From NCBI GenBank assembly GCA_964291315.2, contig OZ219750.1:128001-192000 (forward strand): DNA of 64,000 bases. The letters are read 5' to 3'. This stretch comes from Candidatus Poribacteria bacterium (GTDB lineage: Bacteria > Poribacteria > WGA-4E > WGA-3G). Positions 16,590 to 26,308 of the stretch are shown one piece after another. The position numbers were made by a program, and so were the translations under genes. Position 1 is the first letter of the stretch. The number at the start of each line of letters is the position of its first letter. The notes under the pieces were generated by a model. The model was not told the DNA's origin. It saw only the letters and a list, made by a program, of their open reading frames with translations, and ran no database searches.

Positions 16590-17051
16590 CTATTCTTTCT
16601 CGTATTCTTTGAGAAACCCTCTGAACTCTCTACGGTGTTTTTCCTCATCGGCGAGGAGTTTGATGCAGAGGTCTTGCGTGACGTAATCTATGCTATCACA
16701 GAGACGGATGATTTTATTGTATTGTTCAATTGCAGCGTCTTCGGCTTCGATGACTCCGTGAATTGCGCTTACAACATCCGTTGAGTCTTCTGGGGGTTGC
16801 AGGGATGCTTGTTCGGGTTTAAAGGCGAATGACCCGGGGACCCGTCCGTCGATTTCCTTGATACGTGCAGCGAGTTCTTGTGCGTGTGTGATTTCTGTCT
16901 GTATATCTGCCGCCAAGGATTTTTTAATTTCTTCGGCGCGGATGCCGTCTAAGTCAACGGAAATCGCCAAGTAATTAAGGGTTGCTTCCAATTCTAACCA
17001 ATAAGCGCGCGTCAGTTCTTTGATGATCGCGCCTCTTTTTTCTTCTGTCAT
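16590..17051 (-). CDS. Ferritin-like di-iron protein
   Basis: ExxH motifs 'TEITHA' and 'DEEKHR'; ATG at 17051 after RBS. Confidence 0.85.
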   Translation of the reverse strand: MTEEKRGAIIKELTRAYWLELEATLNYLAISVDLDGIRAEEIKKSLAADIQTEITHAQELAARIKEIDGRVPGSFAFKPEQASLQPPEDSTDVVSAIHGVIEAEDAAIEQYNKIIRLCDSIDYVTQDLCIKLLADEEKHRREFRGFLKEYEKE

Positions 17052-17112
17052 TTTTTCTCTCCTATCACGAGTGATGACGTTTTGATTAATGAAACTATTA
17101 ATTGCCACTGTT

Positions 17113-17141
17113 AGTTTAACATAAGTTAAGACAGATTTCAA
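17113..17141 (-). promoter_or_regulatory. Separate promoter for the ferritin-like gene
   Basis: TTGAAA-N17-TAAACT with extended TG. Confidence 0.45.
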
Positions 17142-17170
17142 TCTTTTTTTCAGCAACACGGATAAAATTT

Positions 17171-17938
17171 CTAAGCATTCAGGCTCGGCATCACCCATGG
17201 ATAGCCTTTTGGATGTGGGAACACCTCGAATGGGATCCCGTAGGTTTCTGATAGGAGGTCAAGGGTCAGCACAACCTCAGGCGGACCACAAGCTACCGTT
17301 TTGCCGTTTTTCAATAATAGCAATTGGTTAGCGTACATAGATGCTAGGTTCAGGTCGTGGATTGCTGTGATAACTGTTTCTCCACGCTCACACAAGGTCT
17401 TGCACAAGTTGAGTATCTGGATCTGGTGCTTTGGGTCTAGATGATTGGTAGGTTCGTCTAGTAAAAATAGTCGTGGGGCTTGTGTGAGGATTCGGGCAAA
17501 GTCAACGCGACTCGCTTCTCCGCCGGAGAGTGTTGGATAGAGTCGTTTCTCAAATATATCAGATTCTACTTGTTGTAGTGCGTTTCTGGCCATTGAGACA
17601 TCGCTCGCGGTCTCTTTTGTGCTGTTGATGTAGGGGTGTCGTCCAAATAGGGCGACCTCTAGACCGGTAAAAGGGAAGTTTATGTCTCGTTTTTGCTGGA
17701 GGTAGGCTCGAAGACGCGCCAATTCCTTTGGTTCGTAAGTCGCGAGGGGCTTATTGAAAAGACGTATGTCGCCGATCGTTGGTGAAAGTTCCCCAGAGAT
17801 CAGTCGTAGGAGCGTCGATTTTCCTGCCCCATTGGGGCCCACAAACCCCCATAAAGCACCTTTTTCAATTGTAAGACTGATGTCCCGGATTAACCACTGT
17901 CCCCCGATACGGTAACTAACCTGTTCCAATTCAATCAT
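17171..17938 (-). CDS. hmuV: Heme ABC transporter ATPase
   Basis: GPNGAGKST, LSGGE, LLDEPT; operon context. Confidence 0.85.
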   Translation of the reverse strand: MIELEQVSYRIGGQWLIRDISLTIEKGALWGFVGPNGAGKSTLLRLISGELSPTIGDIRLFNKPLATYEPKELARLRAYLQQKRDINFPFTGLEVALFGRHPYINSTKETASDVSMARNALQQVESDIFEKRLYPTLSGGEASRVDFARILTQAPRLFLLDEPTNHLDPKHQIQILNLCKTLCERGETVITAIHDLNLASMYANQLLLLKNGKTVACGPPEVVLTLDLLSETYGIPFEVFPHPKGYPWVMPSLNA

Positions 17939-21832: not shown

Positions 21833-23839
21833 TTAGTAGCTTAAAGAGAGGCCACCATAAAATGATCGGCCTGTGAACGTATAAAATGTGGGAATTTTGA
21901 AGTCGAAAATATTATTGCACCCCATCGAGGCGTTAAACATTTTGAAGAGCGTCTTTGAAACGCGGATGTTCCATATCCAATAGCTGGGAGCGAATTCTTC
22001 GGGTTCGAGTATTTTGTCCCCATCATCAAAGAACCCCCAGCGGCTGGCGTATCTACCGCGCAGGTCGGCCTGAAAACCGCTCTTGGAATGGAGATATGCC
22101 AGTTTGAAAGTGGCACCGTGCGTGGAACGGTTCAGTAGTGGTAGACCGGTTTCCTTGTCTGCACCGCGGAGGTAAGCGTACCCGACGGTTGAGGTAAATC
22201 TATCCGTTGAACTAACATCTATGTTGACTTGGGTTTCAACGTCGAATCCTTGTGTGTAAGCGCTGCTGATGTTTTGATATTCAAATTTGCTGCCCCCTGC
22301 TGCGCTTTCTCCGATACGCTCCGCTTCAATCAGATTGTGGAGGTCATTACGGTAAATGTGAATGCGTCCGAGCACTGCGCTCGACACCTGATATTCTGCC
22401 CCTAGGTTCCAATTGTGTGAGGATTCGGGTTGGAGCGTTGGGTTCCCGAAGACTTGATAGCCCGAGGTCACGTTTGTGAAATAGAGATAAAGGTTTTTGA
22501 AGTCTGGTGCTCGAAATCCTTGTCCGTACGAGCCCCGGACCCGCAGGTTGTTTGTCACCCGATACAGCGAACTCAACTTTGGGCTAAAATGTGTGCCGAA
22601 TTCGGTGTGATTGTCTAAACGCCCGCCGATGACGAATGCAAGTGCAGAGACGGGTCGGAATTCGTTTTGGATAAAAAGCGAGTTAGTGAGAACATCTCGT
22701 TCGCGGCCTCTAATCCGTTGGGATTGTAGGTTTTCAAAGATAATCTCGCCCCCCAGGGTCAATTGATGTTTTTCCCAGAGCGGCATATCGAATTGAATTG
22801 TGCCCTTGGCCATGTCTTGGATGTTGAGATTACTGGAACTGATTTCCGCTGTTTCTTTGTTAGTAACAGTTGATACGTCATCATATCGGGTTGCATAGAG
22901 TTTAGCTGTCAATAAAGTTGCGGGCAGCTCCCGTGTGGATGTGCTGAATTCATGCGTTATTCCTAAGCTTCCGCTGAAGTTTTCGATATCCCCTAGGCGT
23001 TCAAAGACAACGGTGTCTCCTTCGCTGATGCCTTCCTGATCCTGTGTGAAATATTGTCCGGAAAACACAAGGTTTGTTCTTGGCGTGAGTTGATATTCAG
23101 TGCGGGCGGCCCCCGACAGGTTCGTATAGCCGTCGATCGTGGTTGTGAGATTAGAAGCATCCAGATCAATTGGGTTTCGGCGGTTGTGGCTGAATGTTAA
23201 GAGTGTATTGAATTTATCTCTCTGTAATCCAATCGTGCCCCGGCTGTCGAATGTACTATTTTGCTCAAAGCTTTGGGAGACTTGTAGCGAAAAAGGGTCG
23301 GTTGCTCTCCGGGTGATAATATTAATAACGCCGCCGAGTGCGGCATTTCCGAAGAGGGAGGCAGTGGTGCCTTTAACGATTTCTATGCGTTCGACGTTTT
23401 CAATAGGGAGTCGTGCCATATCAAGTTTGCCCGCGATGCGCCCGATCTGTGGTTCGCCATCCACAAGAATTAGCACGTATTCGGAGTCGAGGCCTTGGAG
23501 CTGCACGCCGTCGCCGTGTCCATCACGATGGATAATAATGCCTGCTGTATGTTCTAAGACCTCCCCGATGTTCTCTGCCCCTGTTGCTTCAATCTCCGAG
23601 CGCGTAATCAGGCTTGTGATAACGGGGGTATCTTTCAAGCGTTGAGGAGTTTTTGTGGCGGTTACCACGACTGGTTCTAATGCCACCGCCCCTTCAGTCT
23701 TAGTTATATCGCCATTACTCTCTGCTAGGTTCAGCAATCCAAAGGCAAGCAACAGTGACAGAAGATTTGGCAGTATCTGTAAAATCTGCTTGAAAGTGAG
23801 GTTTGCCTTGTGAGAATTGCTCGTTCTGTTTAATGACAT
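21833..23839 (-). CDS. TonB-dependent receptor, probably for heme (HmuR-like)
   Basis: TonB box 'VVVTAT'; plug 'ERIEIVKG..SLFG.AALGGVINIIT'; FRAP and NPTL motifs; next to hmuY. Confidence 0.88.
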   Translation of the reverse strand: MSLNRTSNSHKANLTFKQILQILPNLLSLLLAFGLLNLAESNGDITKTEGAVALEPVVVTATKTPQRLKDTPVITSLITRSEIEATGAENIGEVLEHTAGIIIHRDGHGDGVQLQGLDSEYVLILVDGEPQIGRIAGKLDMARLPIENVERIEIVKGTTASLFGNAALGGVINIITRRATDPFSLQVSQSFEQNSTFDSRGTIGLQRDKFNTLLTFSHNRRNPIDLDASNLTTTIDGYTNLSGAARTEYQLTPRTNLVFSGQYFTQDQEGISEGDTVVFERLGDIENFSGSLGITHEFSTSTRELPATLLTAKLYATRYDDVSTVTNKETAEISSSNLNIQDMAKGTIQFDMPLWEKHQLTLGGEIIFENLQSQRIRGRERDVLTNSLFIQNEFRPVSALAFVIGGRLDNHTEFGTHFSPKLSSLYRVTNNLRVRGSYGQGFRAPDFKNLYLYFTNVTSGYQVFGNPTLQPESSHNWNLGAEYQVSSAVLGRIHIYRNDLHNLIEAERIGESAAGGSKFEYQNISSAYTQGFDVETQVNIDVSSTDRFTSTVGYAYLRGADKETGLPLLNRSTHGATFKLAYLHSKSGFQADLRGRYASRWGFFDDGDKILEPEEFAPSYWIWNIRVSKTLFKMFNASMGCNNIFDFKIPTFYTFTGRSFYGGLSLSY

Positions 23840-23897
23840 AATTTTTTCCTCTTAAATGCGTTTGCTGGATTTGTGGCATGTTTGCTTGCAAATTCTC

Positions 23898-23927
23898 TTG
23901 ACAGAAACAGCACTGATAACGTATTCT
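23898..23927 (+). promoter_or_regulatory. Sigma70 promoter driving the ncRNA
   Basis: TTGACA-N18-TATTCT; predicted +1 (23934) is the first base of the RNA closing stem. Confidence 0.7.
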
Positions 23928-23933
23928 AATTAG

Positions 23934-24101
23934 AGCAGAAAAGGCGTGGGCACGAAATGCGCAGACGCGCGCGGAAGCCTACAGGCCGCTAAACACCGTC
24001 GGTTTGTAATCGACATGCGTGGATTTTCCTTGGAAACAAGGACATCGGCTAACAATTGGGAGTTGGGAGCGTGTCCTGTTTCTCGTGGTGCCTTTTCTGC
24101 T
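23934..24101 (+). ncRNA. Structured ~168-nt RNA, possibly 6S RNA-like
   Basis: Perfect 12-bp terminal stem AGCAGAAAAGGC/GCCTTTTCTGCT; further stems CACGA/TCGTG and GACGCGC/GCGTGTC; central bubble; apical hairpins including TCCTTG-GAAA-CAAGGA; own promoter; T-rich 3' flank. Confidence 0.65.
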
Positions 24102-24112
24102 GCTGTTTTGTT

Positions 24113-24469
24113 TTAGTGTACGTTAAAGGGACCTCCGCGCGGTTCCGATTTCAAATCTGGTCTGGCGGAATCGAGAAATACTTCGTGAAGTTCAAGTTTG
24201 TTAGATTGCGTAAATGCCTCTTTGGGCAGTGTACCGGCTTGAGCGTGTCCTTTACGGAATTCCTCAGATTCTACCCAGTTTTCAAAATCTTGCCGCGATT
24301 CCCAAAGTGTGAAAACAATGTATGGATCACCGGCATTGACTGGTCGGAGCACCTGGTTTGAGATAAACCCTGGCATTCCATCGATGAGGCGTGCCCGATT
24401 TTGGAACCGTTCCTCAAATGCATCTTGGTATTCGGGCGAGACGTAGATGCGATTTGCAACAGTTATCAT
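24113..24469 (-). CDS. IsdG/HmoA-like heme-degrading monooxygenase (ABM domain)
   Basis: 'VANRI..FEERF', 'MPGF', 'TLWES..FENW..SEEFRKGH' contain the Asn/Trp/His triad. Confidence 0.85.
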   Translation of the reverse strand: MITVANRIYVSPEYQDAFEERFQNRARLIDGMPGFISNQVLRPVNAGDPYIVFTLWESRQDFENWVESEEFRKGHAQAGTLPKEAFTQSNKLELHEVFLDSARPDLKSEPRGGPFNVH

Positions 24470-24484
24470 AGTATACTCCTAATT

Positions 24485-24503
24485 GAAAATGAATTTCATT
24501 ATC
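24485..24503. promoter_or_regulatory. Fur box
   Basis: GAAAATGAATTTCATTATC, 15/19 match to GATAATGATAATCATTATC; next to the RBS. Confidence 0.7.
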
Positions 24504-24661
24504 AAAACATATGGTAAGGCGAGGTATCCTGTTCCCCGCCTAACCGTGTTGAACAGGCTATATCTTGGTAGATGTAGTGTCTGTTTTCCTCTGATAAGGT
24601 GGCTCCTTTTTAGAGCGTTATCTTTAGGAAAAGTTAGTAAATCTGAATACTTTCACAAATT

Positions 24662-24680
24662 GATAATGAGTCTCACTATC
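24662..24680. promoter_or_regulatory. Fur box
   Basis: GATAATGAGTCTCACTATC, 15/19 match. Confidence 0.7.
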
Positions 24681-24734
24681 AATTTGTGTGGATGGTAATT
24701 CTGGATGCATTCACTAACACACTAACATTTATAT

Positions 24735-24764
24735 ATTATACTATACACTATGATTCTTTGTCAA
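24735..24764 (-). promoter_or_regulatory. Consensus promoter of the heme operon
   Basis: TTGACA-N18-TATAAT on the minus strand. Confidence 0.75.
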
Positions 24765-24871
24765 ATTTTTTTACGGATGACCGAACTTAATTAATTTTAT
24801 CCGCCTTTTGGTCATAAATTCTCACAATATAAGGCATATTGTACAGAATTTCAGTTTTGAAGTCAAGAAAA

Positions 24872-26308
24872 TCAGTCAACAGATGGATGTGGCACATCTG
24901 AACAGTCTTGATCGTTTGTAATCTGTTCTATTACTTCTTTTCCAGCTTTAAGCAGATCGTGTAAGTGTAAATAGCGGAACAGCGAGCTTCTACCTGTCAA
25001 GTACAAGTTCTCAAATGTCTGGAAATAAGTAACAAGGCTCGCTATTTTTTCTTCGAACCCTACTTCAAGCACAGGGTAGGCGAATGGCAATTTGTAGCTC
25101 TGATAGTGGATAATTTCTTCTGGAAATAGTGGTTTGACCTGTTTTAATGCTTCCCATACCTCAGTTTGCAATGCGGTTTCTGACATACGCCATACGGCAT
25201 CATCACCATAACAGGGCAATTCTAACACAATCACTGTTTGTCCTTTGGGCGCCATGTGTGGGCTTCGGTTCTTGGGCTCATACAAACGTGTAAATGGAAA
25301 TTCTTCACTTGGGAAATAAAGCGAGGCGTTTGGGGAAAAGGTGTCACGGTTCAAGCAGAAAACGGAAAGTACGAGATGTCGGTATTTGATTGTATCGGTA
25401 ACCTCCAAGAGCTCTGGGGGCGGTGCAGGCTCCAACATTTGCATTGAAAGTGTCAACGGTAGCGTGTTAATCACTATGGAGGCAGGTATTTCAATATCGT
25501 TTTGCGCTGTGGTAGAGTTAGGATTGCCTCTCCCTTTGTTCACGAGGATACGTTCAATTTTACGATTCTTGTGGATTAATCGTTTAACGCGATGTTCCAA
25601 ATTAATATGTTTTTCTCCGATGGATTCGCAAAGTTTATCGCTAATCATGCCGATGCCATGTTTCGGGTAAAGGAACGATCCGTCTAAGTGGGACGGTTTT
25701 TTGAGTGTACCCCACACAACAGAATGAAGAAAGCTCCGTAGGTCTAGTCCTTTGAGGCGATTTCCTGAAACGGTAGGGGAGAGTTTAGATGCGGGTTGCC
25801 CCCACAATTTTTCGGAGTAGTTTAGGAGAAAGCGTTCTGCTAACGTTTTTCCGTACTCGCTGATTGCGAATTCAGCGAAATTTCTTGCCCGTTTTTCTTT
25901 TCTATTATGCAGTTTCTCCCAGACAATTTTTAGTAGCGTTTTCGCTTCCAGCTTTTCGACGAGATCGCTCAGCAGAAGGGGGAATCGATAAAATTGCCCT
26001 TGAAAAAAAATCTCACTCGGTGCCGTTACGGCCAACAGATCGTCATGCAGGAGTTTTTTCACCTCTCTGGTAACTGTAGGATCCTTGTCGTGGAATCGGT
26101 GTGCACCGGTGTCGAATCGAAAATCACCGCTCTGCCAAGTGTGAGCTTTACAGTTTGCACCTTTGATGTTTAGGGTCCGACAGTTTCCTCCGACGTGTTC
26201 ACTCGCTTCAAAGACAGTGAAATTGGAGATACCATATTTTTGGGCGTAGTATCCGGTTGCCAATCCAGCAGGCCCACCGCCGAGGATATGGATGTCAGGT
26301 GTTTCCAT
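24872..26308 (-). CDS. FAD-dependent oxidoreductase (protoporphyrinogen oxidase / UDP-galactopyranose mutase-like)
   Basis: GGGPAGL, 'FDTGAHRF', 'FLYPKHGIG', 'AYPV', 'GRSSLFRY'. Confidence 0.75.
   Translation of the reverse strand: METPDIHILGGGPAGLATGYYAQKYGISNFTVFEASEHVGGNCRTLNIKGANCKAHTWQSGDFRFDTGAHRFHDKDPTVTREVKKLLHDDLLAVTAPSEIFFQGQFYRFPLLLSDLVEKLEAKTLLKIVWEKLHNRKEKRARNFAEFAISEYGKTLAERFLLNYSEKLWGQPASKLSPTVSGNRLKGLDLRSFLHSVVWGTLKKPSHLDGSFLYPKHGIGMISDKLCESIGEKHINLEHRVKRLIHKNRKIERILVNKGRGNPNSTTAQNDIEIPASIVINTLPLTLSMQMLEPAPPPELLEVTDTIKYRHLVLSVFCLNRDTFSPNASLYFPSEEFPFTRLYEPKNRSPHMAPKGQTVIVLELPCYGDDAVWRMSETALQTEVWEALKQVKPLFPEEIIHYQSYKLPFAYPVLEVGFEEKIASLVTYFQTFENLYLTGRSSLFRYLHLHDLLKAGKEVIEQITNDQDCSDVPHPSVD

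Follow-up and report, generated by a model that had tools for sequence, protein, structure and literature searches.

Can the gap between two genes of a heme-uptake operon hold a gene of its own, running against the operon? This question is raised by a 273-nt gap (23840–24112) in a 64,000-nt stretch of a Candidatus Poribacteria genome (assembly GCA_964291315.2, contig OZ219750.1, positions 128,001–192,000 of the forward strand). We refer to this whole stretch as the window, give coordinates in it and call its forward strand the plus strand. The gap lies between two minus-strand genes, for an ABM-domain protein and a TonB-dependent receptor, and an initial annotation had read it as the site of a structured antisense RNA, about 168 nt long and driven by a promoter of its own. 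The flanking genes proved to be as described there, and the RNA itself is supported by the conservation of its promoter, by covariation and by a plus-strand asymmetry in 44 aligned sequences. We conclude that the gap very probably harbours a separate gene on the plus strand, whose product would be a non-coding, structured small RNA (sRNA) of ∼170 nt. Judged from its sequence, this is an undescribed, conserved sRNA gene, which belongs with the cis-encoded antisense sRNAs inside operons.

Conservation of the promoter and the element

In the window, a scan for promoter-like sites identified a −35 hexamer TTGACA (23898–23903) and a −10 hexamer TATTCT (23922–23927) on the plus strand, opposite to the operon. 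The resulting TTGACA-N18-TATTCT (23898–23927) had already been pointed out in the initial annotation and matches the consensus in 10 of 12 positions. Seven nucleotides past the −10 hexamer, at the position expected for a start site, begins a perfect 12-nt inverted repeat (23934–23945 / 24090–24101), the closing stem that had also been proposed before and which we call P1. It delimits the predicted sRNA core of 168 nt (23934–24101, plus strand), which folds with −69.9 kcal/mol (z = −3.9), a value that none of 200 shuffles equalled; its complement folds with −62.7 kcal/mol (z = −4.9). Taken by themselves, these features carry limited weight. Promoter-like sites are common, with nine in 2.2 kb of sequence where shuffles have 3.9 ± 2.0, which is a caveat for a lone window; for a 12-bp repeat within 200 nt, a rough estimate gives about one expected occurrence per 64 kb. 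The coincidence of promoter and inverted repeat in one window is therefore suggestive, but not beyond chance.

The decisive support for the predicted gene comes from the comparison of sequences across 45 Poribacteria loci. The receptor protein has many relatives, with 75–81% identity, and a scan of genome contigs yielded 45 orthologous loci (identified here by numbers preceded by L), all from metagenome-assembled genomes of Poribacteria and from 45 different species. In all 45, the ABM gene is located upstream of the receptor gene, and the neighbouring proteins are 71–81% identical. The element follows directly after the ABM stop codon in 44 of them: 43 have it complete with the promoter and one (L040) has a copy truncated at the promoter end, while the remaining locus (L016) has none. 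We aligned the window with the 43 complete loci, leaving out L016 and L040, and counts out of 44 refer to this alignment (A2). The homologues range in length from 133 to 191 nt, with 168 nt in the window, and fall into 32 long forms and 12 short forms (133–148 nt).

Throughout the alignment, the geometry of the promoter is retained. The −35 box with its preceding base, CTTGACA, is invariant in all 44 sequences, as is the TAnnnT pattern of the −10 box, whose defined positions are the three most important ones for recognition by sigma-70; the −10 variants are TATCCT (18 sequences), TATTCT (17), TAATCT (7), TATTTT (1) and TAACCT (1). The spacer measures 18 nt in 43 sequences and 17 nt in the other. 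From the end of the −10 box to the CAG of P1 the distance is 8 nt in 42 of 44, and P1 keeps an identical distance to the −35 box in 40 of 43 loci. The RNA has a mean pairwise identity of 0.75 and the promoter spacer one of 0.64, compared to 0.46 for the fourfold-degenerate sites of the ABM gene (820 pairs). It is this conservation that identifies the site as a predicted sigma-70-type promoter of the sRNA's own.

The element matches none of the families that we searched. Against Rfam 15, neither the window region 23500–24500 nor the corresponding regions of L004 (9640–9930) and L011 (9680–9920) gave a match at E ≤ 10, 6S RNA included, and a search of the whole window at the gathering score returned nothing relevant. 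A full-text literature search found no paper describing a regulatory RNA of Poribacteria. A motif named Poribacteria-1 is reportedly part of a 2017 survey of candidate structured RNAs; if it is included in Rfam 15, it did not match. Self-BLAST of the window gave no second copy, and an nhmmer search over 975,171 bases gave one copy per locus. The sole extra match (L007 16300–16360, E = 0.031) we read as lying inside the ABC ATPase gene. No match to the element was found in plasmid and phage collections and no flanking duplication is visible around it.

We also considered a protein-coding origin of the element and rejected it: the RNA lengths are spread over the three remainders modulo 3 (17/14/13) and neither strand has a reading frame that stays intact across the species, even though the sense-strand frame is open in some of them. 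An open reading frame (ORF) of 101 residues on the plus strand (24056–24361) is not conserved among the relatives and was rejected as a gene as well.

Fold, strand and ends of the predicted RNA

Since RNAalifold gave only 21 pairs for the mixed alignment, we folded the long and short forms separately, mapped the consensus of the long forms onto A2 and counted there. The consensus comprises 56 pairs in 10 helices. Standard pairs occupy 91.8% of its cells, as opposed to 38–48% in slid controls; cells with changes on both sides number 84 (slid controls 18–27), and the covariation score is 0.172 (slid controls 0.04–0.06). None of 500 shuffles reached any of these three values. The number of pairs changed on both sides, 20 against 10–13 in the slid controls, was reached by 16 of the 500 shuffles. 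The conserved, covarying structure for which the initial annotation had proposed to look among Poribacteria homologues is thus present, well above slid and shuffled controls.

What is conserved is a branched fold, in which a junction closed by P1 holds two elements, the P2/P3 arm and a domain formed by P4 together with the hairpins P5 and P6. This differs from the rod with an asymmetric central bubble that had been drawn from the window sequence. An apical hairpin with a GAAA tetraloop, which was part of that model (CCUUG-GAAA-CAAGG, 24028–24041), is an alternative found in the window only; the same bases belong to P6 in both the minimum-energy fold and the consensus, and the hairpin is not kept in the homologues.

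The individual helices are conserved to different degrees. The core of P1 (10 pairs, A2 columns 3–12) pairs on the plus strand in all 44 sequences. Its 3′ arm (24090–24101), which pairs with the 5′ arm (23934–23945), is nearly invariant and reads GCTTTTTCTGC in 42 of 44. The P2/P3 arm (23946–23982; P2 23948–23951 / 23977–23980, P3 23958–23960 / 23969–23971) varies between sequences; the 12 short forms do not have it, and L009 and L028 also miss the P3 hairpin; two pairs of P2 show changes on both sides. P4 (23986–23989 / 24085–24088), which encloses P5 and P6, is the weakest helix, with 79% of cells paired. In the P5 hairpin (23993–24004 / 24008–24020), 7 of 12 pairs have changed on both sides. 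P6 (24032–24044 / 24072–24083), the long 3′ hairpin of the consensus fold, contains covarying pairs such as 129/185, which is AU in 29 sequences and GC in 15, and 130/181, which is CG in 31 and UA in 11. Its apex (24048–24070, plus strand) is a near-invariant stretch of 23 nt with the consensus GCTAACAATTGGCAGTTGGGAGC. The exact 13-mer CAATTGGCAGTTG has a single occurrence in 33 of the 45 loci, always within the element. In L005, L023 and L041, an 18-nt insertion (A2 columns 147–164) duplicates the apex motif, as seen from the CAATTGG / CAGTTGG repeats.

Which of the two strands carries the RNA can be judged from the kind of imperfect pairs, given that a G·U pair on one strand corresponds to an A·C mismatch on the other. 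In the P1 core, G·U pairs occur on the plus strand in 38 of 44 sequences, and all one-sided changes either give G·U or restore a Watson-Crick pair; read on the operon strand, the same core has an A·C mismatch in 42 of 44. Over all helices, there are 267 cells with G·U compared to 78 with A·C, and the proportion of paired cells drops from 91.8% on the plus strand to 83.4% on the sense strand. The bias is also seen for pairs predicted independently from both strands, with 73 G·U versus 23 A·C in the long forms. The fold energies of the alignments are lower on the plus strand for both length classes (−90.2 versus −75.0 for long and −53.4 versus −45.7 for short forms), and the plus-strand fold is more stable in 39 of 44 individual sequences, by 9.7 kcal/mol in the mean.

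At the 3′ side, P1 is followed by a T-rich tail (24102–24115, plus strand), a putative termination zone that extends into the bases opposite the ABM stop codon (24113–24115). This tract is found in all 44 sequences; of the 12 nt that begin with the last base of P1, 8.1 are T in the mean. Transcription would start around 23933–23935, and the 3′ end would fall into the T-rich stretch just ahead of these bases. Taken together, the promoter and the strand evidence from G·U and A·C counts, fold energies and the T-rich tail place the predicted RNA on the plus strand, antisense to the operon. Further out, we observed a second, 13-nt inverted repeat of 85% complementarity between the −10 region (23917–23929) and the last codons and stop of the ABM gene (24113–24125). 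In a sense or read-through transcript, this repeat might lengthen P1, but it may also be due to chance.

The heme-uptake operon around the element

The first gene of the operon encodes the ABM-domain protein (24113–24469, minus strand), a putative heme-degrading monooxygenase resembling HmuQ and IsdG; its best NCBIfam matches are to this heme-degrading group, at scores below the curated cut-offs. It is followed by the TonB-dependent receptor (21833–23839, minus strand), which resembles heme/hemoglobin receptors. Downstream of the receptor, the same strand carries genes for two HmuY proteins, a periplasmic binding protein, a FecCD permease, an ABC ATPase and a Dps/ferritin-like protein, a gene content which makes heme-uptake operon a fair label. 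All operon genes are on the strand opposite to the sRNA. At the end of the operon, the Dps/ferritin-like gene (16590–17198, minus strand), with its start as called, shares 28 nt with the end of the ABC ATPase gene (17171–17938, minus strand).

In most relatives, the sRNA promoter and element are separated from the receptor gene by an additional gene, which codes for a PepSY_TM-like membrane protein of 237 residues (identified with Pfam on L001, 9266–9979). This gene has been deleted independently in several species, among them that of the window (23840–23897), where comparison with the relatives reveals the remnant of its start, ATGCCA (23874–23879, minus strand). The window, L004, L018, L041, L042 and L043 show at least five distinct deletion junctions, each of which spares the TTGACA box of the sRNA promoter. 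In the 12 species with short forms, the start codon of the receptor is located about 15–50 nt from this box and the gap measures 187–230 nt, nearly all of it occupied by the sRNA gene.

Two loci depart from this pattern. L016 (9891–9977) has lost the whole sRNA gene and most of the PepSY_TM-like gene, with a right junction that resembles the one of the PepSY_TM-like deletion in L004. L040 (5457–6182) retains the body of the RNA, while the 5′ arm of P1 and the promoter are gone.

Upstream of the ABM gene, the operon has a promoter that matches the consensus in all 12 positions (TTGACA-N18-TATAAT, 24735–24764, minus strand), and in 31 of 45 sequences TTGACA-N17/18-TATAAT occurs within 420 nt upstream of this gene. 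The form is the same as in the sRNA promoter and points to a promoter type in use by these bacteria. Two palindromes resembling Fur boxes (24662–24680 and 24485–24503, minus strand) each match the classical consensus in 16 of 19 positions; in 44 of 45 sequences, the Fur boxes upstream of the ABM gene reach at least 15 of 19. In the gap itself, we found no promoter-like site on the minus (sense) strand and no Fur box. The sRNA promoter likewise has no Fur box in the 27 of 44 sequences scored, where the best similarities to the local Fur-box consensus were 8–11 of 19.

The region upstream of the ABM gene is itself conserved as a leader of ∼290 nt (24470–24770, minus strand), with an invariant AAAAAATTTGACA...GTATAATATAT promoter. 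One Fur-box palindrome is contained in a longer inverted repeat and the second lies over the ribosome-binding region, and at 24518–24540 there is an invariant GC hairpin, GGCGGGGAACAGGATACC(T/C)CGCC. The leader folds with z = −6.67 and has no meaningful match in Rfam; it may be a long structured 5′ untranslated region or a second small RNA.

Proposed mode of action and alternative explanations

With every operon gene on the minus strand and neither promoter nor Fur box for them inside the gap, the Fur-controlled transcript, starting upstream of the ABM gene, must read through the sRNA gene before it arrives at the uptake genes. The sRNA, being encoded opposite the intercistronic stretch of the operon, is fully complementary to it. 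This arrangement suggests action in cis. The sRNA promoter would fire head-on into the polymerase transcribing the operon, and the effect could come from polymerase collision or occupancy, in addition to duplex formation and subsequent cleavage specific for double strands. The outcome would be a threshold on, or a cut-off of, the expression of the uptake genes that follow the gene for the heme-degrading enzyme, those for receptor, HmuY and ABC importer, or else their uncoupling from this enzyme, as the initial annotation had suggested. We regard such a cis-antisense mode of action as possible, with a little less than even confidence; complementarity and gene order are seen in the sequence, and from them we infer that the RNA is made and terminated, that it pairs in the cell and which way its effect goes. 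As an account of the locus as a whole, a new cis-antisense sRNA acting on the Fur-controlled operon transcript appears to us the best explanation, with an even chance of being correct.

Comparable arrangements have been described for three systems. IsrR of Synechocystis is a cis-antisense RNA of isiA, which together with Fur controls an iron-stress locus; it is made when isiA should be off and removes leaky mRNA, thus setting a threshold (PMC8635728). GadY of E. coli is a short cis-encoded RNA opposite the spacer between gadX and gadW, whose pairing induces cleavage of the polycistronic mRNA and stabilizes the upstream message (PMC5415839). In Streptomyces coelicolor, scr4677 is a conserved antisense sRNA in an operon spacer, close to the downstream start codon, which affects the levels of the downstream and read-through transcripts independently of RNase III (PMC3896431).

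The Poribacteria element shares with IsrR the link to Fur, in that the operon has Fur boxes and the sRNA promoter, where scored, has none; however, IsrR is located inside the isiA coding region and not in an intercistronic gap, and the two have no relation in sequence or in Rfam. With GadY, it has in common that a short cis-encoded RNA faces the spacer of a two-gene stretch within a single transcript, if co-transcription is granted here, but there is no sequence similarity and the conserved fold of the Poribacteria RNA is much more elaborate. The likeness to scr4677 lies in a conserved antisense sRNA within the spacer between two operon genes and near the downstream start codon; that system, however, is from another phylum, concerns an operon of other function and is not related in sequence. 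The iron-sparing sRNAs repressed by Fur, RyhB and PrrF/PrrH, also resemble the element in that an sRNA gene is found beside iron or heme uptake genes, PrrF/PrrH adjoining the phu heme locus. They differ from the Poribacteria RNA, which has no Fur box at its promoter in the 27 sequences scored, no Rfam match and no target signal in the neighbouring genes.

A number of observations weigh against a plus-strand, cis-antisense RNA. The structure we tested was derived on the plus strand from the same sequences, which favours it, even if the margin over the slid controls is still large. The 12 short forms show no strand preference in the pairs predicted independently from both strands (11 G·U versus 14 A·C), and for five of the 44 sequences, all of them short forms, the sense-strand fold is at least as stable as the other. 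A scan of the plus strand from 23000 to 25200 found no canonical terminator hairpin; P1 with the T-rich tail would make an unusual terminator, so that the RNA might run on antisense into the ABM gene. For the operon, the exact promoter pattern is missing within 420 nt upstream of the ABM gene in 14 of 45 sequences, and co-transcription of the ABM and receptor genes is itself something we infer. Finally, a covarying, elaborate fold with an invariant apex exceeds what a plain cis-antisense RNA needs and hints at a protein, a ligand or a target in trans.

This last point leads to the foremost of the alternatives, a trans-acting base-pairing sRNA whose apex, or P1 3′ arm and tail, would pair with distant mRNAs, for example those of iron- or heme-using proteins, its position in the operon being a matter of co-inheritance. 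Seeds are usually the best-kept part of trans-acting sRNAs, and our alignment shows hardly any variation in the 23-nt apex or in the 3′ arm of P1, where the neighbouring proteins have diverged to 71–81% identity; the elaborate fold would also be easier to understand. Yet the apex is G-rich, resembling a Shine-Dalgarno rather than an anti-Shine-Dalgarno sequence, and is mostly paired in the model, and the promoter has no Fur box in the sequences scored. Duplex scans gave no target signal either, although they covered only neighbours and are weak evidence: for the full-length RNA against 49 ORF starts of the window the best value was −53.9, with a mean of −51.9 for shuffled sRNAs, and in a windowed scan of the start regions of 13 neighbouring gene families across the loci the difference to shuffles was at most 2.6 kcal/mol. 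On balance, we consider a trans-acting sRNA unlikely.

The plus-strand promoter could also give rise to a long antisense transcript across the ABM gene, of which the 170-nt structure would be the stable 5′ domain. Besides the lack of a canonical terminator-like site in the interval scanned, it is in favour of such a transcript that the next protein gene on the plus strand is not found within about 8 kb. The T-rich tract directly after P1, however, is kept in 44 of 44 sequences, and the bases immediately ahead of this tract are those that P1 joins to the predicted 5′ end, which suggests a defined 3′ end; moreover, the plus-strand frame extending into the ABM gene is not conserved. We judge this extended transcript to be quite improbable.

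A sensing riboregulator would make use of the same elaborate fold, in that the multi-branch structure and the 23-nt apex would provide a binding pocket or platform, be it for a protein or for a small molecule, that reports on heme or iron status. If true, the element would be a ligand- or protein-gated antisense RNA that sets the expression of the operon beyond the heme-degrading enzyme, by pairing or by head-on transcription. Our expectation of this is low.

That the functional RNA is the sense strand seems hardly more promising. The element would in this case be an intercistronic processing or stability element, an attenuator or a riboswitch, and the apparent promoter an operator or part of an expression platform. 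The sense strand of the window indeed has the lower z-score (−4.9), its apex CUCCC could mask a GGAGG ribosome-binding site, and there are the five short forms mentioned above. Against this stand the A·C mismatch in the P1 core in 42 of 44 sequences, the lower proportion of paired cells (83.4% versus 91.8%), the weaker fold energies of the alignments and the 39 of 44 sequences that fold better on the plus strand. A sense-strand element also leaves unexplained why TTGACA and TAnnnT should be invariant at fixed spacings of 18 nt and 8 nt, and there is no Rfam riboswitch match. We thus find it very unlikely.

A protein-sequestering RNA, either 6S-like and directed at RNA polymerase or CsrB-like, is highly improbable. 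The likeness to 6S RNA (RF00013 and relatives), which the initial annotation had raised, consists in a similar length of ∼170 nt and in a closing stem formed by the two ends of the RNA, and invariant loop and bulge nucleotides could constitute a protein site. It does not extend further: the three sequences searched (window, L004 and L011) have no covariance-model match to 6S or another Rfam family at E ≤ 10, the architecture is multi-branched instead of a rod with a bubble, and the RNA is bound to a single operon and seems dispensable in 2 of the 45 species, as it is lost from the locus in L016 and truncated in L040. For a CsrB-like function, the conserved GGA sites are only two, both within stems. 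A miniature inverted-repeat mobile element, other repeat or chance palindrome, finally, which the 12-bp terminal inverted repeat and the G+C content (54%, compared to 28–39% in intergenic DNA nearby) might suggest, is practically negligible in view of its occurrence once in each locus and nowhere else in the 975,171 bases searched, the same position in 44 of 45 species, and the lack of a visible flanking duplication or of a match in the plasmid and phage collections.

Returning to the sRNA gene antisense to the operon, its position, embedded head-on between two operon genes, makes it a natural case for transcriptional interference and for the uncoupling of genes within an operon. The alignment assembled here could seed a new Rfam family. 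Poribacteria are uncultivated symbionts of sponges, and this RNA family would offer a handle on how they tune the acquisition of heme and iron inside their host.

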